From Minisyncoccia bacterium (GTDB lineage Bacteria > Patescibacteriota > Minisyncoccia > SW-4-49-11), in NCBI GenBank assembly GCA_044356725.1, contig JBIKVS010000007.1, positions 1 through 52,498 of the forward strand: a stretch of DNA of 52,498 nucleotides, in the 5' to 3' direction. Of this stretch, positions 4,830-52,498 are shown in pieces (the stretch's first letter is position 1; each line of letters starts with the position of its first letter). Under the pieces are notes generated by a model. The model did no database searches. It was not told the origin of the DNA and saw nothing but the letters and a program-made list of their open reading frames with translations. The translations under genes were made by a program, and so were the position numbers.

Positions 4830-5975
4830 ATGGAAAATCCCCAGCCAGTATCAAATATATCTACTCCTGCTCCAATCAAAAAAAGACTATTTCCTAAATT
4901 TCTAACCTCCGCTTGGTTTATTATTCTGACTACTATTATCTTATTTGCAATTTGGATTATAATTAGCATACAATCTGTAGCTAATGATTTTTTAGGAATG
5001 GGAGAAGGTTCTGCTGAAACTGGAGATTTGATTTATGAATACTATAAAGGAGATGAAGACTCAGATATTAAAGTAGCTAGATTAGAATTAAATGGCCCAA
5101 TTTCTAATAGCCTAGACACAAGTAGCCCTCTTTCTTTTATCTCCCCAGAGATGATTTATGGAAGATATGTAGCAGATAAATTAGACCAGTTAGCTAAAGA
5201 TGAAGATATAAAAGCTGTATTAATTGACCTTACTACCCCAGGAGGTGAAATTGGGGCATCAGCCAATATCGCAGATGCTATTGAGGCTTATCAAAATAAA
5301 ACCAATAAGAAAGTTTATATTTTTATCAATGAATTATCCGCCTCAGGTGGAGCTTGGGCATCAGCTCCAGCATCAACCATTATAGCTAATCCAACCGCAA
5401 TAGTTGGAAGCATAGGAGTGGCAGGAGGATATGCCCCTAAATTTAGTAATGTTAATTCCTATTCCGAAGGAATTTTAGGAGCTTCAATCAGTGGGGATGT
5501 AGCCTTTACACCAATTTATAGAGGAAAATGTAAACAACCAGAAAATCAGCTCAATATCTCAGAGGAGTATATTAAAGAATGTATTGATCCAGATGTAGAT
5601 GCAATTTACAATACTTTTGTCAATCATATCAGTAAATATAATAATATATCCGAAGATACAATTAAGAATGAAATAGGAGCTAGAGTATTCCTCGCTAACT
5701 CAGAAGAAGCTACTAAATATGGTTTAGTTGATAAGGTAGGGAATGAGGACTTTGCTATAGAATTAATTCAACAAGAAATTGGACAAGGCAATACTATTCA
5801 AATTGCAAATATAACAGAATATACCGGCGGACTATTAGATATATTATTTGGCCCAATTTTTTATAAAGATAAAACTAAACTAAGTTTAGCCCACACCTAT
5901 TTTTGCCAAGCTAATACTCCCCTATTACTTTATGGAGATATAACTCAAATTCGAGGTAGTATTTGTGGGGAGTAG
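4830..5975 (+). CDS. sppA: S49 signal peptide peptidase SppA-like protein
   Basis: N-terminal TM helix; DLTTPGGE, SASGG and VGSIGV motifs. Confidence 0.85.
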   Translation: MENPQPVSNISTPAPIKKRLFPKFLTSAWFIILTTIILFAIWIIISIQSVANDFLGMGEGSAETGDLIYEYYKGDEDSDIKVARLELNGPISNSLDTSSPLSFISPEMIYGRYVADKLDQLAKDEDIKAVLIDLTTPGGEIGASANIADAIEAYQNKTNKKVYIFINELSASGGAWASAPASTIIANPTAIVGSIGVAGGYAPKFSNVNSYSEGILGASISGDVAFTPIYRGKCKQPENQLNISEEYIKECIDPDVDAIYNTFVNHISKYNNISEDTIKNEIGARVFLANSEEATKYGLVDKVGNEDFAIELIQQEIGQGNTIQIANITEYTGGLLDILFGPIFYKDKTKLSLAHTYFCQANTPLLLYGDITQIRGSICGE

Positions 5976-5981
5976 GATATT

Positions 5982-6875
5982 ATGCTTAAAGTTTCAAAAC
6001 TAAACAAATACTTTGGATCTAGTCATATAACTAAGAATATATCCTTTCATATCAATCCAGGTGATATATTCGGACTATTAGGACCAAATGGAGCTGGAAA
6101 AACTACATTACTTAGAATGATTACTGGTATATATTCATATGATTCTGGAAGCATCACCTGGAAGGATAAATCAATTTCATTAGAATCATCTAATATTATA
6201 GGATATTTACCAGAAGAACATGGGCTTTATCCTAAAATGAAAATCACAGATATTTTATTATATTTTGCTGAAGTAAAAGGTATATATAAATCTCCAGTAT
6301 TATTGAACGAGATAGAACAGTATTTAAAAAGATTTGGTATATATGAAGATAGAAATAAGAGAATTAATCAAATCTCAAAAGGAATGCAACAAAAAGTTCA
6401 AATTATAGCAACAATTATACACTCACCAGAACTAATAATCTTAGATGAACCATTTAGTGGACTTGATCCCGTAAACTCTAGAGTACTAAAAGAATTGATG
6501 CTAGAATTAGCCCAAAAAGGTAAAACTATTATTTTCTCAACCCATAGGATGGAACAGGTCGAGGAATTATGTAAAAATATTATTCTACTTAATCATGGGC
6601 AAGAAGTTTTATCTGGAAATATTGAAGAAATTAAGTTATCCTATCGCAATCAAACCTATTTTCTCAAAGTTAAAGATGATTTACCAGATAAAATATCTGG
6701 GGAAATTATATCAAAAGATAAAAATTCTGTACTTTTTAAAAATAAAAATACTGCTGAAGTTACAAATTTTATTCAGAATACTTTATCGGAATATGATGTT
6801 TTAGAGTTTAAAGAAGTACTCCCAACAATGGATGATATATTTATAAAAGTAATACAAGAAAACACTAAAATATAA
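5982..6875 (+). CDS. ABC-2 exporter ATP-binding subunit (NatA/YhaQ-like)
   Basis: GPNGAGKTT, ISKGMQQK, LDEPFSGLDP, STH. Confidence 0.96.
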   Translation: MLKVSKLNKYFGSSHITKNISFHINPGDIFGLLGPNGAGKTTLLRMITGIYSYDSGSITWKDKSISLESSNIIGYLPEEHGLYPKMKITDILLYFAEVKGIYKSPVLLNEIEQYLKRFGIYEDRNKRINQISKGMQQKVQIIATIIHSPELIILDEPFSGLDPVNSRVLKELMLELAQKGKTIIFSTHRMEQVEELCKNIILLNHGQEVLSGNIEEIKLSYRNQTYFLKVKDDLPDKISGEIISKDKNSVLFKNKNTAEVTNFIQNTLSEYDVLEFKEVLPTMDDIFIKVIQENTKI

Positions 6876-10366: not shown

Positions 10367-11371
10367 TCAAATCACAAAGTTAGTTTCTTTTATAATTTCA
10401 TATAAATCTTTTATCCCTACCAGATTAATTGGGGCTTTACCATTGTCTTGAGACTCATTAATTGCACTTTTAGTAAAGTGACTAGTTGAAATAATAACTC
10501 CAAAGCTATTAAAACCAAGGCTTCCTCTTAAATTTGCAACTTCTTTTCTCCCAACTGAATGCTTCCATCTTTTAACTTGAAATTGATAATCTAAATTAAG
10601 ACTAAATCTATGTTTTAAAATAGCATTGACATCTATTCCATCATCACCACTTTTTTTAGTAACCTGAACATTGACAAATCCAGTATGTTTAATTAACTTT
10701 GACATCAAAACTTCAAATTCATAGGGGTTGATTTCTAATAAATTATTTCTTAAAGTTTCAATACTTTTTAAAGTATCTTCATTCAATTTTGGTATTATAA
10801 TGTCATCTTTTTTATTTTTAGTAAATAAAGAATCAATAACTGTATCTTCAGGTAGAATATCTTCTTTAAATTGATTATAAAGAGGTAAAAATATATTTTT
10901 AAAATTTTCAATTTTTAGAGTAGGAATATTTGAAAGAATTTGGAATTCAAAAAGCCAAACTAATCTTAACTCCCCTTGATTATCAAGTTGATAATCTTGG
11001 TAATATCTCAATAGGAATAAAAAGCCAATAAATTTATATTGATTAACTCCTTCTTTTAAAAACCCAAGTATTGGTACTGGTTTTTCTCTTTGTTCAATAA
11101 TTCTTTTATTTACTCCTGCTATATTTTGATCTCCCATTAAACCCGCTCCTGTATATGTCAAAATATCTTCTTCAATTTTATCAGCATAAGGATTTCTAAT
11201 TTTATTTTTGGTTTCCTCTAATGAAGTTATTAAAACTATAAAATCAAGTTCTTTATTTTTAATTTTTGGCCTAATTCCTCCTAAATTTGCAACTTCTAGA
11301 GCATATTTAATTTGATCATTTGAGTAACATTCACCAATTTTTAATGTATCTGGAATAAAAAATTTTTTCAT
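10367..11371 (-). CDS. SRA-like domain plus Mrr-type nuclease (candidate modification-dependent restriction enzyme)
   Basis: N-terminal GGIR..YADK....LTYTGAG.MGDQ....NK SRA-like signature; C-terminal PYEFE..GF..V..T..SGDDGIDV..QVKRW..STSHFT..A Mrr motif. Confidence 0.8.
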   Translation of the reverse strand: MKKFFIPDTLKIGECYSNDQIKYALEVANLGGIRPKIKNKELDFIVLITSLEETKNKIRNPYADKIEEDILTYTGAGLMGDQNIAGVNKRIIEQREKPVPILGFLKEGVNQYKFIGFLFLLRYYQDYQLDNQGELRLVWLFEFQILSNIPTLKIENFKNIFLPLYNQFKEDILPEDTVIDSLFTKNKKDDIIIPKLNEDTLKSIETLRNNLLEINPYEFEVLMSKLIKHTGFVNVQVTKKSGDDGIDVNAILKHRFSLNLDYQFQVKRWKHSVGRKEVANLRGSLGFNSFGVIISTSHFTKSAINESQDNGKAPINLVGIKDLYEIIKETNFVI

Positions 11372-40027: not shown

Positions 40028-40880
40028 TTAGTTATTTTTATCTTTTTTACTTAAAGCTTTTGTCTTGGTTATTTCTAAATAATTAGCTTTACTTATTACA
40101 CTTCTACCTAACTCTTTTTCAGTGTCTTTTCTGGCGTTTCCAGCAACTTTGCCTCCTCTTTGTGCTACTTTTTTATTGGCTGTCATTCCTGCTGGTTTTT
40201 CTTGTTGGGATATTTCTGTGGTCACTTTTTATCCTAGCATTGTGAATATTAGCTCAAGATCAGTCATATTGTCTCTGAGATTGGCTTTGGATGTAGTTGG
40301 GATATTTTTAAGTTTCCTATATTCATTGGGGGTTAGTCCAAATGTGGCTTTGCTGATTTCAGCTGTTAAAATTGCATAATCTTTATTTTCTGTGATACCT
40401 CTTTCTCTCCATTCATCGGTGAGATTTTGGCGAATTGCAATTCCACGAAGTCTTTTATCTATCCAATCAGCTGGATATCCCTTGGCTTCATATAGCTTTT
40501 TCATCCTCTCCTGAGCTAGCTCTGGGTTTTCTATTTCTTCTATTCTCTCATACCCAACTTTAGCTAGCCATCTTTTGAATGGTTCAGCTTTTGGGGATGG
40601 ATTGTATAATTCTGAGTATATGTTCTGTATTACCAGCAAGGGTTTTTCTTTTTTTACCTGTATTGGTAGACATCTCTATCTGGGGACAATTTGTCCCTAG
40701 GTATATTCCAAGCTCCTCATCTCTCTTTCTAATTTTCTTTAGATAATCAGTGGGATTTAAACTATCTGTCAAAGCTCCGACTATATCTACTACTGAAAAA
40801 TACCATTCCTTATTATACCAAATTTTACGAATTTGTTTCTTTTCAAATAGAGCGATTTTATTATGAGTATTTGTTGACAT
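40028..40880 (-). pseudogene. Bro-N/antirepressor-like gene with one frameshift and one nonsense codon
   Basis: Three fragments join into a paralogue of 48370-49188; frameshift near 40590 (IQSIP|SPKAEPFK); TAA at 40229-40231 in MLG*KVTTEI. Confidence 0.92.
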
Positions 40881-40902
40881 ATAATTTTATTTAATTATTT
40901 TT

Positions 40903-40970
40903 ATAATACCATATTTTACCCTTTTTGAGGAGGGGAGATAAAATTATGAATTGTGAATTATGAATTGTAG
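40903..40970 (-). promoter_or_regulatory. Repeated promoter block, copy 1 of 5
   Basis: Minus strand reads CCCCTCCTCAAAAAGGGTAAAATATGGTATTAT, preceded by a heptamer array. Confidence 0.75.
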
Positions 40971-41107
40971 GGCTTTAAGTCCCTCCTATTAGCTCTTTTA
41001 AAGAGATATTAGGAGGGGGCGACCTTTCAGTCGCCTTTTTTATCCCTTTTCCTATATTTTACTTTGAGGTTATTTACAGGTATAATATAAAAAAGTATCT
41101 AATATAT

Positions 41108-41509
41108 ATGAAAACATTTATAAAAAATTTCCAAGATTGGTTCTTTTTAAAACCAAAGCTAGATAATAATAATCACAAACCTCCTTTTGTTTCAGAAAGA
41201 GACTTTTGGTGGGCTCATTTAGGAGAAAATATTGGGACTGAAATTAGTGGTAAATCTAACAGATATACAAGACCAGTTATTATTTTTAAAAAACTCTCTC
41301 CCCATACCTTTTTAATTATACCAACTTCAACCAAAATAAAATCTGGATCTTGGTTTGTACATTTTATCCATAAAGAACTAAATATGGTAGCTTGCCTACA
41401 TCAAATTAGAGTAATTGATTATAGAAGACTACAAAATAAAATTGGTAGAATTGATATCAATGACACTAAAAAAATAAAAACTCAATTTAAAAAATTATAT
41501 AAATTATAA
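41108..41509 (+). CDS. PemK/MazF-family endoribonuclease toxin (no adjacent antitoxin ORF)
   Basis: WWAHLGENIGTEISGK...RPVII....IPTST...LHQIRVIDYRRL..KIG; own promoter TTTACT-17-TATAAT ending at 41086. Confidence 0.88.
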   Translation: MKTFIKNFQDWFFLKPKLDNNNHKPPFVSERDFWWAHLGENIGTEISGKSNRYTRPVIIFKKLSPHTFLIIPTSTKIKSGSWFVHFIHKELNMVACLHQIRVIDYRRLQNKIGRIDINDTKKIKTQFKKLYKL

Positions 41510-41598
41510 AAAGAAAGCCCCCTATTCGGGGGGACGCTACATATGTAGAATATGAAAATATATTAACAAGAATAATATATTTTGTCAATATTGGTACT

Positions 41599-41897
41599 AG
41601 ATGAGATGTTGAGGTTATAAATTGTAAATGATAAATTATAACTTTCGTAGCGAAGCCATCCCTGCGGGAGGTAAACGTTTATCCCTCCATATCGTAGAGT
41701 CTACGCCCTCGCCGACATTGTTTTAAAATTCCTCTCTTGAGCCGGTGTAGAATGAACCGTATTCTGTCTCCCTTTGGAGGGAGTACCCGTAGGGGGAGGG
41801 TGGATAGAGTTTAACTATGAATTCGTAGTGGCGACCTTTCAGTCGCCTTTTCTGTCCTCCCTTGGGGGAGGTGGCACCGTAGGTGACGGAGGAGGAA
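41599..41897. repeat. Heptamer array plus composite REP cluster
   Basis: GTAGTGGCGACCTTTCAGTCGCC at 41825-41847; CTGTCTCCCTTTGGAGGGAGTACCCGTAGGGGGAGGG; CTGTCCTCCCTTGGGGGAGGTGGCACCGTAGGTGACGGAGGAGG. Confidence 0.88.
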
Positions 41898-41922
41898 TTT
41901 TATAAAATTAATTTTAACTTAC

Positions 41923-42147
41923 TTATTCCTTATTATAATTTTTAATTATATCAGATAATCCTTTTCTTTCAATAAAAGTTTTATTCTTAAATTTCATTGA
42001 TTTAATTTGTTTTTTTTCAATTAATTTTCTAACCTGATTTTTTGATAAAATCTGCATATCCTCTACAATAGAAAGACTAATGTAATCTTTATCTATTGAT
42101 TCAAAAATTTCTTGTTCAAGTTGTTTTTTAGATTTATACATATTCAT
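41923..42147 (-). CDS. Small excisionase-like (HTH_17-type) DNA-binding protein
   Basis: YISL.....ILSKNQVRKLI....IKSMKF...TFI.R..L pattern. Confidence 0.6.
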   Translation of the reverse strand: MNMYKSKKQLEQEIFESIDKDYISLSIVEDMQILSKNQVRKLIEKKQIKSMKFKNKTFIERKGLSDIIKNYNKE

Positions 42148-42188
42148 AAATTATAATTTAATATTAAGAAAATAATCTTATCAATTCA

Positions 42189-43220
42189 TCAAAGTTTCTT
42201 ACTGGGTTCTTTTAACAACGTTATAAATTTCTTAGGCTTCCCTGTTTCCCAGTTCATAATTTTGACATATTTTTTTCCGTTATGTTTGTCTGGACGATTA
42301 TATTTACAGCCTTCACATTCGTATTTTTCTACTTTTTCATCCTCATATCCTTCCAAAGTGTTTTTACCTGGTGTTGTGATAGTCTTATGATTACAGCTCA
42401 TTGGGATGACATATTTTAAGCCGTCCATTTGGAATATATTCCAGCTTATAATGATTGCAAATTCTTCTTTGATTTTTCTTGATGGTTCTTTTTTAAACTT
42501 AGCTTTATAATAATCTATCAGGGTATAGAGTAAATTTTCACGAGCTAAAAGTACATTGTCTCCTTGCCATTCATAGCCATAGCTTGCCTTGAAGGCTTCT
42601 TTTGCCCAATATAGCCAGTCTTTTTCATCTTTACAATATTTATTGACTATTTGTAATTTCATATCCAAAAAGCCTACTCTTTGTTCAATAGGTATTATTG
42701 TCCCATGTTGAGATGTGGGATCATATCTGCTGACTATGAAGGGTCCTTCTCCACAAGTGATTTCTAATTTTAATTCTTTGACATATTCTTGCCAATTATG
42801 TTTGTTTACGGTATAAGTGTCTACCGATTCATTCATTTGTTTGACTATGTCTAAAGGAGTGAATACTTCTGCTTTATCTTTGGTACGATGTTTTTGCTCA
42901 GCTAGACTTTTGGAGACTCTAGGCTGAATCGTTTTGCCATAGACATTAGTAACTAATTCTGGTCTAATTGGTTCTTTAGAATCAAAAACATTTGCTTTGG
43001 ATTTTCCCTTTGCTTTATCTTTATATGAATCAGTTGCCCATATTATATTATGCCTTGTTATATTACCTTGTTCTTGAGAATTGATATTTTCGATCTCTTT
43101 CTTTTTAAGTAATTTGATAATTTTAGGACTTGGGCAATGTAATAATAAAATATCCAAAATTATACCCTCTTGGCGAAGAGTGTTCTCTAGTATATCTATA
43201 TTTTGCTTCTTTTGAGGCAT
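42189..43220 (-). CDS. R-M associated methyltransferase-like subunit
   Basis: AEVFTP, LEITCGEGPF, YGYEWQGDN..LAR.N, WNIFQMDGL; no NPPY/DPPY motif visible. Confidence 0.85.
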   Translation of the reverse strand: MPQKKQNIDILENTLRQEGIILDILLLHCPSPKIIKLLKKKEIENINSQEQGNITRHNIIWATDSYKDKAKGKSKANVFDSKEPIRPELVTNVYGKTIQPRVSKSLAEQKHRTKDKAEVFTPLDIVKQMNESVDTYTVNKHNWQEYVKELKLEITCGEGPFIVSRYDPTSQHGTIIPIEQRVGFLDMKLQIVNKYCKDEKDWLYWAKEAFKASYGYEWQGDNVLLARENLLYTLIDYYKAKFKKEPSRKIKEEFAIIISWNIFQMDGLKYVIPMSCNHKTITTPGKNTLEGYEDEKVEKYECEGCKYNRPDKHNGKKYVKIMNWETGKPKKFITLLKEPSKKL

Positions 43221-43226
43221 AAAGAT

Positions 43227-46200
43227 TTATGTCATCGGCTTGACATGAGATTCGATAAAGTCAATTTCTTTTTGATCTAGTCCATATTTTTTGTACAATT
43301 GTTGATCTATTTCAGGAATTGATTTTGACCAATCTATATCTGATTGAGGAGTGAAGTTTTGTAAAGGAATTTTTGACCAGACATCTTTAGTCTTATTATT
43401 TTGAGTCGTTTTAAGAATTCCTAACATGGTGCGTGCAAATTTACTCTTCAAATAGCTTAAAATTGCCTCAGCTTCATAGTAAGTATCAAAAGAACCTATA
43501 CTTATAAATGTTTGGGTATGTCCTGTTAGAGGTTCTCCGACAACTGGATTAGATAAGGTTTCCCCAAACTCACCTGAACCATTAGCTGCAGGGACAAAGA
43601 TTTTATACTTCAGCATATTTTCTGAAGCTTCAACATAATCAGATTTAATAAATTTGAATGTACGAGATCCATTTTGACGGCCATATATTCTAATATAGCT
43701 TCCATCTTCATATGGACTTTCACTAAAAATTTCTGGCACTACATCAAAAATTGAGGATGTTAATCTTCTTTCTTTGCCATCCCCACCAAGCTTTTTTTTG
43801 AATTCTGGATAATCCCTATAAAGAGTATCTAAATTGAATTTTGTTTGAACATACATTAGGGTACCAAATTCAGGTGCTTTACCTTTAGATTTAACCTTAT
43901 TTAATATCGAATTTAATTCGGGGCTATTAGTAAAAGAACCAATCGCACCAAAATTTTGATTTTTATCTCTATAGGTTATTACTATACCCCCCTTTATATC
44001 AGTATTTGGAAATATCTTATCAGATTTTTTTTCATAGTATAGTATCTTTAAACTCTCATCACTTAGCATTTTTTTATTCCATATCTGAGGGGTTGAACCA
44101 ACATTAAATAAAAATCTAGCTGGCGTTATTAAGCTCACTTTATCAGATATTTTATAAGATTCTTCGAAGAATAGGTGATAAATCGAATCATCACGGTTTC
44201 TTTCGCTATTATTTTCCTGATATGGCGGATTTCCTACGACTGCGGTAAATTTCATATTTTTATCTAGGTTAAATTTGGCTAATAATTCATCTTGTAATTT
44301 ATAGTCTTTATACTGTTCTTTTTGTTGAAGTTTAGATACTAGATCTTCTATATAGATTATATTGGTCTCTATACTTTTATTATATCCAGCTAATGTTCTT
44401 TGGGTTATGCTTTTGGCCATTGGGCTTTTACATAGGACATATATATTATTTTTGAGTACTTCTCGCCAAAGTTGTTGATATATATCTTCTTCTGATTTTT
44501 TATGATTTCTTTTTAATTTTCTTGAATATACATTGTAGGCTGATAGTAAGGGGTACATTCCTGATTTAGAATTGATTTCTAGTATTTTGGTGTTTTCATC
44601 TTCCCATATACTTGTGTCTACATCTTTACCACTTACCCAAAATGGTTTGCCTGTTTTACTATCTATTTGCTCACTGCTAAAATTATGTCCTCCAAAGGCT
44701 GATGTTAGATGCATATTGACTACATTCCATGGAGTAAGGACGGTTTCTTTATCTGGGTTTTTGAAGGTTGAGAATATTTCTGCAATTGCTTGTATTCTCT
44801 CAGTTGGCATTAATTGATCACAATCATAGGCTTTGGCTCTGATGTTTTTAGTGACTCCTTTGAATACATCTTCGTCATAGTATTGAACAAAATCTTGGAA
44901 TTTTGCTTTGGTGAGTCCTTCTGGCATAAATTCTTCCCAAGACTCATCATCTACTAGATCGATAAATTCTTGTAGGTCTATATCTTCTCTATAGGATACA
45001 TTGGCTCCATATACTAACATTGGCATTCTGATACTGACTGCTCGGAGAATACTGATTGCTGTTTGTTTCTTTTTTTGCTTTTCTCGATTATCTTTTAATT
45101 GTGCTAGTAAAGCTTCTTTTTCTTCTTCTGTTAGTTCTACTCCTTGTTTTTGCTTTTTCTCTGCTTCTTCGGCTTTTTTTCTTGTTAATGCATCCATTCC
45201 ATGGTCATTGATTTTAAGCTCATTTGTTTTTTCTTTGTTTGATTTACCTACAATTTGTTTTAAGTCATCAAAGCTTTTCCAAGCTATTCCATCTAGATTT
45301 AATAGTTTATCATTGTATAATTTTGGATCGTCAAACCCGTTACGACTTACTCTGTCAATAATTGCTTCTTTTAGTTTTAATAACATTGTATCTACATCAA
45401 AAGACTTCATCTTACTATTGTCTGATGTTATTATTGGGCAGAAATTCAAAAATTGTATCATTGCTTCTTTTTGCTCTTTGGTATTGATTTTACCAGATTT
45501 ATGATTTAGCTCTACTGCTTCTGCGACTAGTTTGAGGGTTCTATCTGGTGCAAAGTCGAATACATAGCCTTGAGTTTTGATTTTACCATTGATTTTAGCT
45601 GGGGTTTGACAACGGAATGCGGTCTGTAGATAAGTTGTAGCTGAGCTGGTATCTGACATCATAAATACTGCTGTCCATTGAGGGATAGATGCTCCTGTGG
45701 TGAGTCTTTGTCCTGTTAGGGTGATAGTGTATTCATGATTTTTAATAGCATTTATTACTCTTTCTTTAGCATCTTTATCCTCTTCATCGTCTTTATTATC
45801 CCCTGATATATTCACAATTCCAAAATTACCTGCTCCAAAGACTGGATGTCCTTTTAGTAATTTTTCCATTGCTTCTATAACTTTTACTCTATTTGGGAGG
45901 AGCCAAAGTGAATGTTTATTATAATTTCTATATGCTTCTGTAGCATAAGGGAATTTGGTGTTTAAGCTGTCATTAACTAGTAAGTTTAAGAATTTTTGCA
46001 CCTTATCTTTGTATACAAATTCATCTGTATCATTGCCTTCTTCATCTTTATGTACTCGGAAAAATTCATGAAATTTGAATGCTTTGTCTAATGTGTCATA
46101 AAACTCTCCACCTGTAATATCTATATTATTTTTGAATTTATCTATATCATAGGTAAAAATACTCAAAGCTGGTAATTCGGAATAAGGGTTTGGGACTCCT

Positions 46201-47246
46201 GGATTTCTAGTTTCCCAGTTTAGTTTATCAGCTTGTTCCATTACATAGTCCCATGTGTAAATCTCCTCTTCTTGATGTTTATGTATAATATTAAATGGGG
46301 TTCCTGAGAGGACTAATGTAAAGTTGGTGGGAATATTTAAAAATACACTTTCCCCAAGATCACTTTGTGTGCCTTCGTGGGCTTCATCTATAATTACCAT
46401 ATCCCAAGTTGTGTCAAATATTTCATCATTTTTTTCAAATCCTTTTGCTTTAGATTGATTTGATTCATCTTGTACTATTCGCTTCGCTCCTCTTAAATCT
46501 TGTAATGAGGCAAAGTATACAAATTTCTTATTTTCTTGAATAAGAAATTTAATATTCTCTCCTTTATCTTTGGATGAATATTCATAGTTATCACTAGCAA
46601 GTACTTTATTAAAGTCTTCATACCAGTCAGCACTTACACTTGGTCGATGTGTTACTATGAGAACTTTTTGCATTTTATTCTTTTTGGCTACTTGCATTGC
46701 TGCTGATGTCTTTCCAAATCTCATTTTAGCATTCCAAAGGAATTTTTTACGATTTTTTTTGATTGCTTTAGTAGTTTTTTCTATTGCATCAAGTTGATTC
46801 GGACGGAATTGGAATTCAATTTGAGTTGAATTTATTTTTTCTTGGGATGTTAGGGCGGTTCTTCCTTGTTTCACTGCCTGTATAGCATTTTTAGCAATAT
46901 CAAGACTGATTTCAAACCATTCTGAATGAGCATTTTTTACATTTTCTGATTTTCTATCATAGCCAGATCTTATCAGAACATTATGAACATCTTTATCACT
47001 AAAACAATCTCCATCGTTTGTTATAGCTAATTCAGCATATTCTAGTTTATATGGTATATCGGCAGTTTGGGTTTGTTGTTTTATCCGATTATGGGCGGCT
47101 TGATCTATATCTTGTTGACTTGGATTTTCTAAATTGATTGTGGTATATCCTGTCTTAAGACGACCTTTATGTGTTTCATAAGGAATTGAATATAAATACA
47201 CTACTCCATATGAAAAAGTTTCATGTATTTTATAATTTCGTTCCAT
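43227..47246 (-). CDS. GIY-YIG/T5orf172-like nuclease, SF2 helicase and N6-adenine methyltransferase (Eco57I-like) fusion
   Basis: VYLY..LKTGYT..RI.QQ..EWF; NAKMRFGKT, DEAH, LSGTP, QTAFR; VLTP, LEINSKSG, VGNPPYQ, ITPARF. Confidence 0.92.
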   Translation of the reverse strand: MERNYKIHETFSYGVVYLYSIPYETHKGRLKTGYTTINLENPSQQDIDQAAHNRIKQQTQTADIPYKLEYAELAITNDGDCFSDKDVHNVLIRSGYDRKSENVKNAHSEWFEISLDIAKNAIQAVKQGRTALTSQEKINSTQIEFQFRPNQLDAIEKTTKAIKKNRKKFLWNAKMRFGKTSAAMQVAKKNKMQKVLIVTHRPSVSADWYEDFNKVLASDNYEYSSKDKGENIKFLIQENKKFVYFASLQDLRGAKRIVQDESNQSKAKGFEKNDEIFDTTWDMVIIDEAHEGTQSDLGESVFLNIPTNFTLVLSGTPFNIIHKHQEEEIYTWDYVMEQADKLNWETRNPGVPNPYSELPALSIFTYDIDKFKNNIDITGGEFYDTLDKAFKFHEFFRVHKDEEGNDTDEFVYKDKVQKFLNLLVNDSLNTKFPYATEAYRNYNKHSLWLLPNRVKVIEAMEKLLKGHPVFGAGNFGIVNISGDNKDDEEDKDAKERVINAIKNHEYTITLTGQRLTTGASIPQWTAVFMMSDTSSATTYLQTAFRCQTPAKINGKIKTQGYVFDFAPDRTLKLVAEAVELNHKSGKINTKEQKEAMIQFLNFCPIITSDNSKMKSFDVDTMLLKLKEAIIDRVSRNGFDDPKLYNDKLLNLDGIAWKSFDDLKQIVGKSNKEKTNELKINDHGMDALTRKKAEEAEKKQKQGVELTEEEKEALLAQLKDNREKQKKKQTAISILRAVSIRMPMLVYGANVSYREDIDLQEFIDLVDDESWEEFMPEGLTKAKFQDFVQYYDEDVFKGVTKNIRAKAYDCDQLMPTERIQAIAEIFSTFKNPDKETVLTPWNVVNMHLTSAFGGHNFSSEQIDSKTGKPFWVSGKDVDTSIWEDENTKILEINSKSGMYPLLSAYNVYSRKLKRNHKKSEEDIYQQLWREVLKNNIYVLCKSPMAKSITQRTLAGYNKSIETNIIYIEDLVSKLQQKEQYKDYKLQDELLAKFNLDKNMKFTAVVGNPPYQENNSERNRDDSIYHLFFEESYKISDKVSLITPARFLFNVGSTPQIWNKKMLSDESLKILYYEKKSDKIFPNTDIKGGIVITYRDKNQNFGAIGSFTNSPELNSILNKVKSKGKAPEFGTLMYVQTKFNLDTLYRDYPEFKKKLGGDGKERRLTSSIFDVVPEIFSESPYEDGSYIRIYGRQNGSRTFKFIKSDYVEASENMLKYKIFVPAANGSGEFGETLSNPVVGEPLTGHTQTFISIGSFDTYYEAEAILSYLKSKFARTMLGILKTTQNNKTKDVWSKIPLQNFTPQSDIDWSKSIPEIDQQLYKKYGLDQKEIDFIESHVKPMT

Positions 47247-47273
47247 AGTTTAGAAATATTTTACTATATATTT

Positions 47274-47362
47274 GTATTATACCACATTTTTGCCTTTTTG
47301 AGGAGGGGAGATAAAATTATAAATTGTGAATTATTAGTGGTGAGAAATCCACCCCGTCCAGC
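47274..47362 (-). promoter_or_regulatory. Repeated promoter block, copy 2 of 5
   Basis: Minus strand reads CCCCTCCTCAAAAAGGCAAAAATGTGGTATAATAC (extended -10), about 30 nt upstream of the ATG at 47246. Confidence 0.8.
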
Positions 47363-47582
47363 TCAGTCCTCCCTACCCCGTCGCAAATGGGATTTGCGCC
47401 TGTCCTCCTCCGTCACCTTTGGTGACACCTCCCCCAAGGGAGGACAGAAAGCAATCCACCCCCGCCTTTCAGGATTCCCCCTCCTAAAAGGGGGACATAA
47501 GCTCAAGTTGCAAAATACTCCACCCCGTCAGGCGAAGCCTGCCACCCCTCAATTTATCGACCGTAGGTGGAGAGGGGAACTT
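47347..47582. repeat. Composite palindrome cluster
   Basis: Modules shared with 49277-49380 and 50370-50790 (47421-47515 resembles 50670-50763) and with 38300-38360. Confidence 0.88.
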
Positions 47583-47674
47583 TAGGAAAAAATGAAAAGC
47601 CCACCTGTGAGGGGGGCTTGGGGTGGGATAAGTAGAGTAAATATTTTTACGAATATTTACAGAATATTACTTTT

Positions 47675-48172
47675 ATGCTATATATTAGATGTATTCTGGT
47701 GTTAAAAATGATCAGTTTCTTTCTTGATAAGCTCTTTCCCAAGACTAATCAAACCTTTATACCTTTTCTATATAATGATATAAAGATTGGATTTCAAAAA
47801 ATTAAAATTTGGATATTTGTGTCGGAATCAACAAACGAGGCATTAAAAAATCAAGATTTGATGAAAGTGCTAAAATTTTGTGTCGACAACATATGGTTCT
47901 CAAAGGTTACATTAAGAATTGAAAAATGTAAGAATATAGAAGATTTAAATCTAGGGCTACATCTAACAATGAGGTCTTGGTTGGATATAGATAGAGACAG
48001 TAGACATGAATACAGATTTAATGCTAAGGAAGTATTGTTGAGTATATTATATAATGAAGAAACTCCTGATTCAGTAAGAGCAGAAGCTTTGATGTTTTAT
48101 AATCAAATTAGCACTAGAAATATAATCCCATTGAAAAAATCTGGTTTTAATGTGATTGATTTACCAACCTAA
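47675..48172 (+). CDS. Hypothetical protein
   Basis: 165-aa ORF (start may be ATG at 47708) followed by the perfect hairpin AAATGGTTATCT/AGATAACCATTT plus T-tract (48171-48199). Confidence 0.6.
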   Translation: MLYIRCILVLKMISFFLDKLFPKTNQTFIPFLYNDIKIGFQKIKIWIFVSESTNEALKNQDLMKVLKFCVDNIWFSKVTLRIEKCKNIEDLNLGLHLTMRSWLDIDRDSRHEYRFNAKEVLLSILYNEETPDSVRAEALMFYNQISTRNIIPLKKSGFNVIDLPT

Positions 48173-48221
48173 ATGGTTATCTGTAGATAACCATTTTTTA
48201 TTTTAAACCTATAAAAAACAT

Positions 48222-48325
48222 TCCACCCTGCGGCCGTCGTAAATGTCCTCCTCCGTCACCTTTGGTGACACCTCCCCCGAGGGAGGACAAGTTATAAACA
48301 CAGGCGACTGGAAGGTCGCCCCTAC
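48222..48325. repeat. Palindrome cluster ending in a GTAG-REP
   Basis: TCCTCCTCCGTCACCTTTGGTGACACCTCCCCCGAGGGAGGACA; GGCGACTGGAAGGTCGCCCCTAC at 48303-48325. Confidence 0.88.
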
Positions 48326-48369
48326 GAAACAAATGGTGGGATAAAATCCCTAATTTATATTTTAAAGTA

Positions 48370-49188
48370 TTATTTTAATTTCTTGGTAGATTTTTTGGAT
48401 AAATAGTTATTCTTTGTAACAATTGATCTTCCAATCTCTTTCTCTAGTTGTTCTTTGGCAATTCCGGCAATTCTTCCCCCTCTTTTGGCATCTTGTTTTA
48501 ATTTTGCTTTTCCTAGAGAATTTTCTGTTTTATGAATTTCTGTTGTTGACCTTTCGCCCAGCATAGTAAATATTAATTCAAAATCATCCATATGATCCCG
48601 TAGATTTTCTAGTTTTAAACCTTTAACTTTTTTGTGTTCACTTGGTGTTATACCGAAAGTTGCTTTGGAAATTTCTGCTGTTAGAATTTCATAGTCTCTT
48701 TGTTCTTCTATACCTCGTTTTTGCCACTCTTCGGTCAATTCCTCTCTAATAGCAATCCCTCGCATTCTTTTTTCTATCCAATCATCAGAATATCCTTTCA
48801 GTTTATATAGCATTCTTGTTCGTTTGGTTGCAAGTTCTGGATTCTCAATCTCTTGCACTCGCTCAAATCCTACTTTAGCAAGCCATCTTTTGAATGGTTC
48901 GGCTTTTGGTGATGGTATGGATTGTATAATTCTTAGTATTCCTTCGGTATCTGCACAATCGGTTTTTCGTAGTTTTCCATCTTCCGCAATCAATTTCAAC
49001 TGTTCCCAAAATGGGAACGGTTGAGACATTTCTTTGTCTCGTACTTTCATTTTTGCCCAATATGTTTTAGGGGTAGGAGTTTCAGTAAGTACTGCTATTA
49101 CATCAAGGATTGAAAACCACCACTCATTTTTATGAAGTGTTTTTCTAATCATTTTTCCTTTAAATAAAACTATTTTATTTATTTCCAT
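48370..49188 (-). CDS. Bro-N domain/antirepressor-like protein
   Basis: IRK....EWWFSILDVIAVLT..YW..LKL.AEDGK.R.TD.AD...ILRIIQSIPSPKAEPFKRWLA; NLRDHM. Confidence 0.92.
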   Translation of the reverse strand: MEINKIVLFKGKMIRKTLHKNEWWFSILDVIAVLTETPTPKTYWAKMKVRDKEMSQPFPFWEQLKLIAEDGKLRKTDCADTEGILRIIQSIPSPKAEPFKRWLAKVGFERVQEIENPELATKRTRMLYKLKGYSDDWIEKRMRGIAIREELTEEWQKRGIEEQRDYEILTAEISKATFGITPSEHKKVKGLKLENLRDHMDDFELIFTMLGERSTTEIHKTENSLGKAKLKQDAKRGGRIAGIAKEQLEKEIGRSIVTKNNYLSKKSTKKLK

Positions 49189-49206
49189 TGTGGTTATTAT
49201 TAAATT

Positions 49207-49380
49207 TATTATACCACATTTTTGCTTTTTTGAGGAGGGGAGATAAAATTATAAATTGTGAATTATGAGTGGTGAGAAATCCACCCCGTCCAGCGAAGCT
49301 GTCCACCCCTCGAGAGGGGAATTTTAGCTCAGTCCTCCCTCCCCCTTCGGGTACTCCCTCCAAAGGGAGACAGAATACAG
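49207..49380 (-). promoter_or_regulatory. Repeated promoter block, copy 3 of 5, with attached palindromes
   Basis: 49207-49293 is nearly identical to 47276-47362. Confidence 0.8.
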
Positions 49381-49403
49381 TTCCGCCCTTCAAAAGTAGG
49401 ATT

Positions 49404-50255
49404 TTAGATTTTCTTTTTTATTTTCACTTGTTTATCTTTAATCTGTAGGTAGTTTTCTCTTGTTATTACTGATTTTCCTGTTTTTTCTTCTAACGCTTTT
49501 CTTGCATCTTTGGCAATTTTACCTCCTTTTATGGCTGGGAGTTTATTTTCTTCAAACCCTTGTGTTTGTTCTGTCTCTGCAATTTTTCTTGTAGAGAGTT
49601 CTGCTAATGCTGTAAATATTAACTCTTCTTCGCTCATATGATCACGGAGATTTTGTGTTTTTAAGTTTTTTAATTTTTTATGTTGTGTTATAGAGATATC
49701 ACTCCACTCCTGATGTATAATATTGGTTAGTATAGCGAATTCTGTTCCCTTTGCTACTCCATTTTGAGCCCAATAGTCTGTCAGTTTATTTCTTGTTTCT
49801 TGACCAATCATTCTCTGCTGTATCCATTTTTGGCTTTTTCCTTGCTTTTGCCAATATTCACGAGAGCGATTTAGGGCTTTTTCTGGATTGGTCATTTCTT
49901 CCATTCTTTCATATCCAACTTTAGCTAACCAAAGTTTTATTGGCTCGGCTTTTTTACTTGGAATTGATTGAATAAGTCTCAAGATTGTCTCTACATCTGC
50001 TACATCAGTTTTATAAAACTTACCATCTGATGACTGTAGTTTCAGTTTGTCACATTTTGTGACAATCTCACTTCCTTCTTTTTTTAATCTGTTTTTGAAT
50101 GTAGTCCAATAACTTTGAGCTTTTTTGAAATCTTGCTGCTCTGTTAATACTGCAATTATATCTATTATAGAAAAATACCAAGTTTCTGTATTTTGATTGT
50201 AGTGTCTACGGATTTTATATGTCTCAAAAATAGCAAGTGAATTATTATTTTTCAT
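49404..50255 (-). CDS. Bro-N domain/antirepressor-like protein
   Basis: WYFSIIDIIAVLT, LKLQSSDGKFYKTD, RLIQSIPSKKAEPIKLWLA, NLRDHM. Confidence 0.92.
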   Translation of the reverse strand: MKNNNSLAIFETYKIRRHYNQNTETWYFSIIDIIAVLTEQQDFKKAQSYWTTFKNRLKKEGSEIVTKCDKLKLQSSDGKFYKTDVADVETILRLIQSIPSKKAEPIKLWLAKVGYERMEEMTNPEKALNRSREYWQKQGKSQKWIQQRMIGQETRNKLTDYWAQNGVAKGTEFAILTNIIHQEWSDISITQHKKLKNLKTQNLRDHMSEEELIFTALAELSTRKIAETEQTQGFEENKLPAIKGGKIAKDARKALEEKTGKSVITRENYLQIKDKQVKIKKKI

Positions 50256-50282
50256 AATTTATATTTGTCTAATTTTATATTT

Positions 50283-50384
50283 GTATTATACCACATTTTT
50301 GCTTTTTTGAGGAGGGATTGGGGGAATTGTGAGTGGTGCATTGTGAATGGTGAGTTGTGAATGGTGAGCAATCCACCCCGTCCA
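50283..50384 (-). promoter_or_regulatory. Repeated promoter block, copy 4 of 5
   Basis: Minus strand reads CCCTCCTCAAAAAAGCAAAAATGTGGTATAATAC; six heptamer units at 50327-50368. Confidence 0.8.
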
Positions 50385-50790
50385 GCGAAGCTGTACACCC
50401 CTCAAGAGGGGAATTTTAATACAAAGTACAGGCGACTAGAAGGTCGCCCCTACTATATGGAGGGATAAACCCTCCGCTACGAAAAAAATCCACCCCGTCC
50501 AACTCAGTCCTCCCTACCCCGTCGCAAATGTCCTCCTCCGCCGTCGTAAATAGTATTTACTCCTTGAAAACCCACGGTTTCCAACACTCGGTCTTTGACC
50601 TCGTTGCCTTCCTTCACGGGAAAACTCCCGTTTTCCCGACCCCTTTCCCAAAGTCTAAAGCCTTTTTACGGTGACACCTCCCCCGAGGGAGGACAGAATG
50701 CAATCCACCCCCACCTTTCAGGCACCCCCTCCTAAAAGGGGGACAAAAGCTCAAGTTACAAAACACAGGCGACTAGAAGGTCGCCCCTAC
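50370..50790. repeat. Large composite palindrome cluster with two GTAG-REPs
   Basis: GGCGACTAGAAGGTCGCCCCTAC at 50431-50453 and 50768-50790, plus the other module types. Confidence 0.9.
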
Positions 50791-50847
50791 GATTCATAAT
50801 TGATTTTTCCAACATTCAAAAGTAGGATTGTAGATTTTGCAGTTATA

Positions 50848-51837
50848 TTATAATAATTTCTCTAACTCTGCCGCTAATTCTTCTGGTTTTGGTAAATATA
50901 ATTGATATTTGGACACGAACATTTGATTACTTATTCCACCCATAGCATATTCCATTTTTATATCGTGTTTTTCTGCACTTAGAATAATTCCGATTGGTTC
51001 ATTATCTCCTTCTGTATTCTCTTCGGTTTTGAAGTAATTAAGATACATATTCATCTGTCCAATATCTGTATGGTCTGCTTCTCCTATTTTTAAATCTATT
51101 AGGACAAAGCATTTCAAAATTCGATGATAAAAAACTAAATCTATATAATAATGTCTACTATCAAAACTGATACGAAATTGTCTTTTTACAAATGTAAATC
51201 CTATCCCCAGTTCTAACAAAAACATTTGTAAATTATCTATAATTTTTTGTTCCAACTCTGCTTCAGAATAATTATAGGCTTCTGGAATACCAAGAAAGTC
51301 TAAGATGTATGGTTCTTTTATAATATCTTCTGCTTTTTGAATTATTTTGCCTCTATGTGAAAGTTCTAAAATTTCATTCTTATCTTTACCAAGTGCTAGT
51401 CTTTCAAATAACATAGATTGTTTTTGTCTTCTGAGTTCTCTTATTGACCAATTTTCTATTATACATTGTTTTTCATAAAAACTACGGGTAAGATCATTTT
51501 CTATTTTTAATAGTTCAAAATAATGACTCCAGCTCAATTTGTGAGACAGTGTCTCACTTTTTGGAAACTTAATATATAATAGTCTCATATATGTTAGGTT
51601 GCTTCTACTAAAGCCTCTCCCATATTGTTTTAGTTCTCTTGAGAGTGAAGTTAGCAATTCCTTACCATATTCCGCTTTAATATTTCCTTTTTGTTCAAAT
51701 TCAACTATGGTTTTACCTATTTCCCAATATGTTTGTAAAAGTATTGTATTAACACTAGATAAGGCGGTACTCTTACCTTTTTCAAGTATCTTTGAAATAT
51801 TATTGGCTAAATTTTTATAATTACTTATTTTTGTCAT
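50848..51837 (-). CDS. YhcG/DUF1016 PD-(D/E)XK nuclease family protein
   Basis: YWEIG, GFSRSNL.YMR, LSWSHY, KEPYILDFL, FLLELG.GF.FV.RQ, IDLVFYHR.L....IDLK, GQMNMY; likely ATG at 51837. Confidence 0.95.
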   Translation of the reverse strand: MTKISNYKNLANNISKILEKGKSTALSSVNTILLQTYWEIGKTIVEFEQKGNIKAEYGKELLTSLSRELKQYGRGFSRSNLTYMRLLYIKFPKSETLSHKLSWSHYFELLKIENDLTRSFYEKQCIIENWSIRELRRQKQSMLFERLALGKDKNEILELSHRGKIIQKAEDIIKEPYILDFLGIPEAYNYSEAELEQKIIDNLQMFLLELGIGFTFVKRQFRISFDSRHYYIDLVFYHRILKCFVLIDLKIGEADHTDIGQMNMYLNYFKTEENTEGDNEPIGIILSAEKHDIKMEYAMGGISNQMFVSKYQLYLPKPEELAAELEKLL

Positions 51838-51860
51838 AGTTTTTATATTGTATATACTCT

Positions 51861-51936
51861 TATTATACCCCATTTTTACCTTTTTGAGGAGGGTGGGTAA
51901 AATTGTGAATTGTGAATGGTGAGTTGTGAGTTGTGC
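51861..51936 (-). promoter_or_regulatory. Repeated promoter block, copy 5 of 5
   Basis: Minus strand reads CCCTCCTCAAAAAGGTAAAAATGGGGTATAATA; heptamer array at 51903-51936. Confidence 0.78.
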
Positions 51937-52056
51937 TTAGACATGCTCTGTCACCCCCCACTGCTAATAATGTTTCAATATTGTTATAGTCTAAATCAAA
52001 AATTTTTCCTTACCTCATATATAATTTTGTTATGAGGTTTTTTATTTATTATATAT

Positions 52057-52088
52057 AAAAAAGCCGATATATCTGAATACCGGCTTTG
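52057..52088 (-). terminator. Terminator of the NblA-like gene
   Basis: AAAGCCG...CGGCTTT stem followed by a U-tract on the minus strand. Confidence 0.6.
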
Positions 52089-52106
52089 GAAAAATCATGT
52101 GATGAA

Positions 52107-52316
52107 CTATGAACTATCTTCTGGTGTAGGGATTTGTATGGGAGAGAGATTTTGACTCATCACCCATGCTGTAGCTGCTCTCTGAGATTGCCATGCCTGT
52201 AACAACTGCTTACATAACCCTCGTAATTCTTCAATATCAGTGGTAGCGTCAATTGCTCGAGTCATTCGCTCTAATTCAAACTTTTGTCCAATTGATAATT
52301 GCATTGGTTCAGTCAT
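52107..52316 (-). CDS. NblA-like small helical protein (picocyanobacterial type)
   Basis: P.QLSIGQKFELERM...D.....EELRGLCKQLLQAWQSQRAA..W.M resembles the NblA LS.EQ.F helix-loop-helix; promoter TTGACA-17-TAATCT at 52373-52345. Confidence 0.65.
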   Translation of the reverse strand: MTEPMQLSIGQKFELERMTRAIDATTDIEELRGLCKQLLQAWQSQRAATAWVMSQNLSPIQIPTPEDSS

Positions 52317-52498
52317 GGACTTACATATGCAAAGGACTATATTTAGATTACATTAATTATTATGTACTGTCAATATATTGTATAGGACGAATACATCGTG
52401 GAAAAATTAGAGAGGAAAGAGAAAGGAGATAAATAGTTAAGAGAAGTATGAGGACGTTTAGTATTATAATAGTAAATGTATTCTATTAAAGATTTGTT

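Follow-up and report, generated by a model that had tools for sequence, protein, structure and literature searches.

A picocyanobacterial-type nblA-like gene cassette in a genus of Paceibacterota

The stretch of DNA analysed here (the window, 52,498 nucleotides) is contig JBIKVS010000007.1 of the Minisyncoccia bacterium assembly GCA_044356725.1, and near its right-hand end lies a short nblA-like gene whose product, P0001, is the subject of this work. NblA is described as a dimer that serves as an adaptor: it attaches to phycobiliproteins and ClpC, and it brings in the Clp protease (10.1101/494369, PMC12695635). The assignment of the open reading frame (ORF) to the picocyanobacterial NblA type draws on its sequence, its homologues, a profile comparison and an AlphaFold2 (AF2) model. 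The gene is framed by a promoter and a terminator:

52107..52316, minus strand: nblA-like ORF of 69 aa (P0001), assigned to the picocyanobacterial NblA type
52345..52380, minus strand: conserved promoter block ATATATTGACA-N17-TAATCT, with the −35 box TTGACA at 52373..52368 and the −10 box TAATCT at 52350..52345
52050..52087, minus strand: intrinsic terminator, a hairpin at 52087..52060 (11 pairs, 6-nt loop) followed by a T tract

The original prediction, made from the letters of the window, had described an intact 69-aa ORF with a TTGACA-17-TAATCT promoter and a terminator, and each part was recovered. The ORF is intact and contains the residues quoted for it, both hexamers and the 17-nt spacer are present in the sequence, and a terminator scan of the locus found one terminator, compared with 0.2 ± 0.5 in shuffled sequences. 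A consensus promoter scan did not list the TTGACA-17-TAATCT site, TAATCT matching TATAAT at three of six positions, and promoter-like sites in this AT-rich stretch were not enriched (6 versus 4.3 ± 2.1 in shuffles). We take the promoter as real because of its conservation across three species and not because of the scan. Specifically, the locus in the window's genome (G000) can be aligned with those of two congeners (G007 and G009; two further congeners, G002 and G008, are considered below) from ATATATTGACA across the ORF to the terminator, and the three loci are divergent beyond these points. Both promoter hexamers are identical in all three species, with diverged sequence farther upstream, and the terminator hairpin is kept in G007 and G009 despite changes in both arms. 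The ends of IS3-family insertion sequences (IS) can carry outward −35 boxes, and in G000 an IS abuts the promoter. A hybrid promoter with its −35 box donated by the IS3 end was nevertheless rejected, since ATATATTGACA-N17-TAATCT also occurs in G007 and G009, where the upstream sequence has no IS similarity.

The gene had also been described as visibly more GC-rich than its flanks, which holds only weakly. Its GC content is 41%, compared with 27–29% in the flanks and 33.7% in the window, but 9.9% of all 210-nt segments equal it and its GC content at third codon positions (GC3) is 30%. Because one in ten segments is equally GC-rich and GC3 is this low, we regard the contrast as minor and attribute it to amino-acid composition.

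A word-indexed search with P0001 returned 229 relatives, where the original prediction had allowed for the case that no NblA or cyanobacterial homologue would be found. Among the 120 relatives listed, all that are named are "hypothetical protein" entries of Cyanobium, Synechococcus or Cyanobacteriota with 62–78% identity, and three unnamed metagenome proteins among the matches listed are 81–84% identical to P0001. An exhaustive hidden Markov model (HMM) search of 1.84 billion representatives gave 330 clusters at E ≤ 0.001.

To anchor this family to a named gene, we used the quantitative PCR primers printed in PMC12695635 for nblA2 (Syncc8109_1607), a host gene of Synechococcus sp. WH8109. The forward primer finds a mismatch-free site in one of 401 genomes (G366), and both primers lie inside a single ORF there (L158:1465-1620). 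The P0001-family HMM matches this WH8109-like nblA2 ORF at E 1.6e-18, and BLASTP aligns P0001 with it over 51 positions with 21 identities (41%), no gaps and E 3e-15. A tandem paralogue of nblA2 lies about 40 nt upstream in the same genome (L158 1238-1620) and is matched by the family HMM at E 4.7e-18; an HMM of canonical NblA scores this paralogue slightly better than nblA2 itself (E 0.012 versus 1.1).

The family is broadly distributed in picocyanobacteria. PMC12695635 describes several nblA copies in marine Synechococcus and just one in many low-light-adapted Prochlorococcus ecotypes, and nblA also in subcluster 5.2. We found family matches in 48 of the 81 genomes of the picocyanobacterial family, with 4–7 copies in genomes of 2.2–2.6 Mb, 1–3 in Cyanobium-sized genomes of about 3 Mb, and 0–1 in genomes of 1.3–1.9 Mb, with the exception of G193 (1.9 Mb, three matches). 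This pattern fits the published description if the genomes are apportioned to Synechococcus and Prochlorococcus from their size in Mb alone.

Homology to canonical NblA was evident at the level of profiles. The Pfam NblA model matched none of five Cyanobium and Synechococcus carriers of the family, and the general NblA profile of the authors of PMC12695635 likewise misses picocyanobacterial NblA. For the comparison we assembled a canonical reference of 26 distinct NblA sequences from 27 of the 30 loci of a PF04485 search, in which 39 of 121 genomes of the cyanobacterial phylum passed the cut-off; the three omitted loci have the same matched segment as L090. As validation, the canonical set matched PDB 1OJH (NblA) at 2e-25. 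Aligned to it with hhalign, the narrow family profile gave a probability of 71–82% and a score of 29.7, whereas column-permuted queries scored 10.3 ± 2.5 and none of 150 reached 29.7. A broad profile of 139 sequences (149 minus seven longer than 115 aa and three gappy ones) gave a probability of 91.6%, P 8.4e-7 and a score of 33.4, which none of 100 permuted controls reached, and a second hhalign run against canonical NblA gave a probability of 86.4% and P 4.7e-6. The signal is strongest at the N-terminal motif M-x-x-P-x-x-L-S-L-x-Q-x-F. Together, the named relatives, the nblA2 match and the profile-profile homology place P0001 in a divergent picocyanobacterial NblA family, in agreement with the predicted resemblance to small NblA-type proteins of Synechococcus and Cyanobium.

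Searches of other resources added little. The three nearest named clusters in the ESM Atlas are NblA, with scores of 0.76–0.78 that fall under the 0.9 bar, and we treat them as a lead only. NCBIfam and PADLOC returned nothing for P0001, and PHROGs returned one family of unknown function at E 0.016. DUF6127 (PF19622) was considered and not adopted, as it reached 15.2 bits against a threshold of 27 (E 0.023, 29 residues) and matched two of 33 relatives.

The AF2 model of P0001 is a helix-loop-helix with helices at residues 9–24 and 28–56 (predicted local distance difference test score 83, core 94–97). The predicted fold thus has the "small (about 6 kDa) helix-loop-helix" character of NblA, and its two-helix hairpin corresponds to the NblA architecture described in PMC12695635 and 10.1101/494369. 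Functional NblA is reported to be a dimer (10.1101/494369); a homodimer prediction for P0001 scored 0.40 against a mark of 0.42, and we count it neither way.

We next consider the genome in which this gene resides. The window is the entire contig C20 of G000, an 897-kb assembly of 20 contigs estimated to be 99.3% complete and 0.05% contaminated. Contig C20 carries gyrA, fusA (EF-G), gatB, pyruvate kinase, def, fmt and one tRNA gene, and its GyrA is 89–97% identical to the congener orthologues in all five congeners compared. G000 is therefore a genuine genome of Paceibacterota, a phylum of the Candidate Phyla Radiation (CPR) to which NCBI now gives the name Minisyncoccota. It contains no phycobiliprotein genes (Phycobilisome family) and no photosystem reaction-centre genes (Photo_RC), which confirms the original description of a non-photosynthetic, CPR-like genome. 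Neither ClpP nor a Clp_N domain was matched in G000, and ClpP was matched in none of five congeners. The genome encodes a single divergent Hsp100-type ATPase of 815 aa with a double AAA+ arrangement and without Clp_N, which reaches 340 bits where the ClpA cut-off is 993, and which lies far under the ClpA and ClpB equivalog cut-offs. A protein with a T4SS_pilin domain is encoded in the window.

Because the gene lies at the very end of the contig, the original prediction had asked that a chimeric join be excluded, with a break near 51.95–52.05 kb counting against the gene's linkage. We compared contigs from four sequencing runs with window positions 50800–52400. One contig of run X7 (record 10, 1008 nt), a run not flagged as a possible source of the assembly, spans 51272–52279 with 0 differences and so reaches from the interior of the neighbouring nuclease gene over the suspect interval into the ORF. 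In runs X6 and X8 the junction is covered by overlapping or abutting pieces. In total, 24 runs in 24 studies contain the stretch, 21 of them with at least half of its words and five of them possible sources; 21 of the 24 are labelled lake water. A contig from an RNA library (X20 record 3), a freshwater metatranscriptome, carries a diverged variant over 51959–52320, although contigs of this kind cannot show transcription.

The cassette also occurs in two congeners, on an 8.5-kb contig in G007 and about 40 kb into a 253-kb contig in G009, where it stands beside genes for a type I restriction-modification system, RhuM and T5orf172. Thus the linkage is unbroken across the suspect interval, and the contigs, so far as they can show, rule out a chimera. 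In all, the gene is found in three of the 12 species of one genus and was not found in the other nine, in 29 further relatives or in 400 other genomes across the CPR phylum. In a search for an empty site, G008 proved to have the nuclease gene (80% identity) but to lack the cassette, and its junction could not be aligned.

Two sets of records deserve mention here. Seven metagenome-assembled genome records with non-cyanobacterial titles (L013, L020, L028, L039, L054, L068 and L076; titled Bifidobacterium, Bordetella, Rhizobium, Tabrizicola, Sulfopaludibacter and Chitinophaga) carry Cyanobium-type copies on contigs of 64–70% GC, and these are probably mislabelled records and not further transfers. 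Records L141–L145 (Ga0163217_* contigs of one metagenome, about 60–62% GC) carry copies that look broken or frameshifted.

Analysis of the coding sequences indicates that the gene has been retained under constraint. Across 53 codons, pairwise dN/dS among the three CPR copies is 0.07, 0.09 and 0.25 at dS of 0.8–2.3, and none of the three species has a frameshift or stop. GC3 is 29–38% in the CPR copies compared with 63–92% in Cyanobium loci, and synonymous sites are saturated between CPR and cyanobacterial copies. Given this saturation and the host-like GC3, the transfer is either old or the gene is fully ameliorated. Despite the full turnover of codons, the protein core remains 75–85% identical to Cyanobium proteins; in G009 it differs from that of Cyanobium gracile at eight of 53 positions. 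The CPR-type proteins have Gln6, Cys35 and a C-terminal ...DSS in common. In Cyanobium gracile the gene stands between an ABC-F ATPase gene and a gene for a DegP/HtrA-type protease, a context that gives no functional clue.

Relatives are found on viral contigs as well. To one group, of about 44% GC, belongs a complete phage of 279 kb with direct terminal repeats (L149, IMG/VR record G168), in which the family member lies at 4986-5204 between genes for a dCMP deaminase and a sigma factor; primase, ribonucleotide reductase and homing endonuclease genes are also found around it. Another relative lies on a contig of 49% GC that encodes a terminase and a portal-type protein. Freshwater picocyanobacteria may be the hosts of this phage, which would then be one of their jumbo phages. 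We found psbA or psbD in none of three phage records searched. Searches of deposited phages with P0001 and the phage copy (tblastn) returned nothing, and megablast of L149 returned only a 160-nt intron-like match. Because the three records have neither photosystem gene and the phage has no deposited relative, the label "cyanophage" is not established for these contigs.

A tree of 73 rows and 71 columns was built from all rows but L152 of the window, CPR, low-GC and remaining cyanobacterial sets, together with 21 chosen representatives. It puts all CPR-type rows, together with the phage rows and with some unnamed representatives, in one clade (98/90 support), which under midpoint rooting is nested among high-GC Cyanobium sequences. 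The six CPR-type rows are not monophyletic in the best tree, and their monophyly is not rejected (approximately unbiased test, p = 0.156). An earlier tree of 126 rows and 69 columns, for which every second cyanobacterial row was dropped and every second representative plus seven chosen ones kept, was too poorly resolved to be used. Since the family is broad in picocyanobacteria and confined to one genus within the CPR, transfer into the CPR is the only reasonable direction, and the origin on the cyanobacterial side that had been proposed agrees with the nesting of the CPR and phage copies among Cyanobium and with the gene's absence from other CPR genomes.

We conclude with high confidence that an ancestor within one Paceibacterota genus acquired a picocyanobacterial-type NblA horizontally, from Cyanobium-like picocyanobacteria or their phages, and that the gene now persists in some species as a cassette with host-like codons under purifying selection. 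What the protein does is harder to judge. In the cell that encodes it, neither a phycobilisome nor ClpP nor a canonical ClpC was found, yet its sequence has stayed Cyanobium-like, and for this reason we consider that P0001 may act in another cell. A host-directed function inside a picocyanobacterium is a serious possibility that we would place a little short of an even chance. CPR cells are generally auxotrophic epibionts. Freshwater Gracilibacteria, which belong to the CPR, have been seen on picocyanobacteria by catalysed reporter deposition fluorescence in situ hybridization (PMC9166423), and cyanophage NblA is described as causing a stepwise loss of the host antenna from which the phage benefits (PMC12695635).

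On this basis we tentatively propose a model that we hold to be somewhat more doubtful than sound, in which the freshwater Paceibacterota genus parasitises picocyanobacteria and delivers an NblA that mimics that of its host. P0001 would act inside the picocyanobacterial cell to which the CPR cell attaches, where it would bind phycobiliproteins and host ClpC in place of the host's own NblA. Clp-dependent breakdown of the antenna would be triggered, and the dismantled phycobilisome would release amino acids that feed the auxotrophic epibiont, a benefit that the original prediction had raised as a possibility. A candidate route of delivery is machinery resembling a type IV secretion system (T4SS), which is common in CPR bacteria. 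T4SS genes are reported to be widespread in the CPR and essential for epibiotic growth in Saccharibacteria (10.1101/2025.01.22.634366). Taking acquisition and function together, we regard this best explanation as evenly balanced between right and wrong.

Several observations weigh against it. With regard to identity, a search of P0001 with Pfam NblA (PF04485; gathering threshold 25 bits), the check suggested in the original prediction, was formally negative, with no match at E ≤ 1; sub-threshold matches occurred in eight of 33 relatives (best E 0.022), and matches to unrelated families were as frequent. The profile-profile signal comes mainly from the N-terminal 20–26 residues. When PDB sequences were searched with the broad profile, phage Gp77 came first (E 0.14) and NblA 1OJH second (E 0.29), and the narrow profile retrieved only IsdG (E 1.1). 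Foldseek against the PDB returned 35 rows at E ≤ 10; none of them was NblA and none reached E ≤ 0.001, the fold being generic. In addition, the function of the picocyanobacterial host NblAs is itself putative, and PMC12695635 calls their role in degrading other proteins unclear. With regard to function, no Shine-Dalgarno sequence is evident upstream of the ORF, and no secretion signal is evident by eye (no predictor was run) in the polar N-terminus of P0001. The attachment of this genus to picocyanobacteria is itself something that we infer, and the 815-aa Hsp100-type ATPase of G000 is a possible partner for P0001 within the CPR cell. With regard to history, G002, a 100% complete genome and one of the two closest congeners (GyrA 96%), has no copy, which makes the gene accessory. 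In G000 and G009 its neighbours are defence and mobile genes, a setting that would suit selfish cargo as well, and the 71-column midpoint-rooted tree does not separate a cyanobacterium from a phage as donor.

These points bear on the alternatives to different degrees. The first is that P0001 works in the CPR cell on a partner other than the phycobilisome, for instance as an adaptor or regulator of a divergent Hsp100-type ATPase or of FtsH. The Hsp100 relative of G000 would supply such a partner, and purifying selection and a conserved promoter fit any useful function. Moreover, nblA is reported in Prochlorococcus, most of which are without phycobilisomes, and viral NblA is reported to lead to the cleavage of many non-antenna proteins (PMC12695635), which indicates that the family is not strictly tied to the phycobilisome. 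However, G000 has neither ClpP nor Clp_N, its Hsp100 relative falls far below the equivalog cut-offs, and nine of the 12 species in the genus manage without the gene. A core that has stayed 75–85% identical to Cyanobium through complete codon turnover is also easier to understand if the protein still meets cyanobacterial partners. We consider such a role in the CPR cell unlikely.

A second alternative is that the gene is a passenger on a mobile or defence island, derived from cyanophage or cyanobacterial DNA in lake water and of little or no benefit to its carrier. The accessory islands of G000 and G009, with their IS3, restriction-modification, RhuM, T5orf172 and Bro-N genes, the patchy distribution within the genus, the presence of one cassette in three different contexts, and the related copies on phage contigs, the complete 279-kb phage among them, all suit a passenger. 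Against this stand dN/dS of 0.07–0.25 at such high dS, an unbroken reading frame, and a conserved promoter and terminator. The variant-bearing contig in the freshwater metatranscriptome library points the same way, though weakly, as DNA can occur in such libraries. On balance we find the passenger explanation improbable.

That the protein serves the CPR cell against phages, or in counter-defence, is suggested by the neighbours alone, a candidate nuclease of PADLOC family PDC-S02 in G000 and a type I restriction-modification system with RhuM in G009. Such a role is made very improbable by the lack of a PADLOC match for P0001, of any partner gene common to the three loci, and by the family's home in the picocyanobacterial core genome. 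Finally, an assembly or binning artefact joining a cyanobacterial or cyanophage fragment to a CPR contig, as might be feared from a gene that lies 180 nt short of a contig end within a repeat and from earlier NblA sequences in "non-cyanobacterial" bins, described as all cyanophage fragments but for one exception of likely cyanobacterial origin (10.1101/494369), can be given next to no credence in view of the difference-free X7 contig, the coverage in X6 and X8, the host-like GC3 of 30%, the congener cassettes (one deep within a 253-kb contig), and the housekeeping genes on the same contig, including those for GyrA, EF-G and GatB.

Comparison with known systems helps to define what is new about P0001. 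It belongs to one sequence family with WH8109 nblA2 (Syncc8109_1607; PMC12695635), and both are missed by the general Pfam profile. It differs from picocyanobacterial NblA in being encoded with AT-rich codons by a 0.9-Mb non-photosynthetic CPR genome and not by a cyanobacterium or cyanophage, and the Gln6, Cys35 and ...DSS of the CPR copies contrast with a picocyanobacterial tail of ...D[IV]L. With canonical NblA (PF04485; Nostoc sp. PCC 7120, PDB 1OJH) it shares its size, the predicted two-helix hairpin and the N-terminal motif, whereas it falls under the Pfam threshold, its second helix has diverged, and binding to phycobiliproteins and ClpC is putative. A further analogy is with the NblAs that S-TIP37, other T7-like cyanophages and freshwater cyanophages use as auxiliary genes, whose carriers, like this one, have no antenna and which, if P0001 is host-directed, would share with it a dependence on the cyanobacterial cell. 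Relatives on phage contigs do cluster with the CPR copies. The T7-like phage NblAs are, however, described as nearer to canonical NblAs than to the NblAs their hosts encode (PMC12695635), whereas P0001 is of the host type; furthermore, its carrier is a cellular bacterium and the protein would need to pass through two envelopes. The T4SS of CPR epibionts is a possible route for a host-directed protein, and the window has its T4SS_pilin domain, but no such effector appears in the abstract of 10.1101/2025.01.22.634366, and we found nothing that connects the cassette with a secretion gene. In the literature searched we found no paper linking nblA with Patescibacteria, although the supplementary lists of PMC12695635 and 10.1101/494369 may already include CPR-binned sequences.

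As judged from sequence, then, P0001 adds a new member to the picocyanobacterial NblA family and extends the phage-like carriage of NblA to an ultra-small cellular bacterium that is not photosynthetic. The CPR accounts for a large part of bacterial diversity, yet for most of its bacteria neither the hosts nor the factors that manipulate them are known. In these searches the gene's other homes were picocyanobacteria and phage contigs only, and the gene is kept intact under selection in a cell without the known target and most of the known machinery, which makes it a rare and specific clue to the host of a CPR bacterium and to how that host is exploited. If the host-directed model is true, the cassette would correspond, in a cellular organism, to the nblA strategy of cyanophages and would offer the first sequence-based pointer to a host and an effector for a lake Paceibacterota lineage; if active, it would be one more biological loss to the light harvesting of lake picocyanobacteria.

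The cassette lies in an accessory island that follows def and fmt and that contains the following features:

40200..52498, no strand assigned: accessory island with toxin, methylase-helicase, two Bro-N genes, GC-rich repeat block, nuclease, nblA-like cassette and IS3
41108..41509: MazF/PemK-type toxin
43227..47246: Eco57I-type methylase-helicase of 1339 aa, in which domains of T5orf172, ResIII/SNF2 helicase and Eco57I methylase type are fused
48370..50255: two Bro-N proteins
50848..51873, minus strand: YhcG/DUF1016 PDDEXK nuclease, neighbour of the cassette (PADLOC candidate defence family PDC-S02)
52372..52498, minus strand: 3' end of an IS3-family transposase gene/element (rve_3/rve_2 and IS3 family matches), the contig stopping inside a multi-copy repeat

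The last 127 nt of the window recur at seven other contig ends of G000, with 120–173 nt shared. This 0.9-Mb genome thus has eight or more copies of the IS3-family element, to which many of its assembly breaks are due.

Between the Bro-N and nuclease genes lies a GC-rich, apparently non-coding block (50260-50850, and also 51880-51945), with counterparts in G009 (L004, about 10700-11150) and G007 (L005, about 5540-6260). Rfam returned nothing for the block at the gathering threshold or at E ≤ 0.01. Its units (about 50370-50420, 50605-50650 and 50700-50790) occur in 11–68 copies per genome in five congeners, and one unit contains a GGCGAC...GTCGCC hairpin that is present twice in the window. From its sequence, the block looks like a genus-wide family of dispersed repeats, similar to repetitive extragenic palindromes or miniature inverted-repeat transposable elements, in otherwise AT-rich genomes. 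Immediately upstream of the nuclease gene, at 51880-51945, is a heptamer-like tandem repeat (GTGAATT/GTGAGTT) at which the contigs of run X6 end loosely, suggesting length variation among strains.

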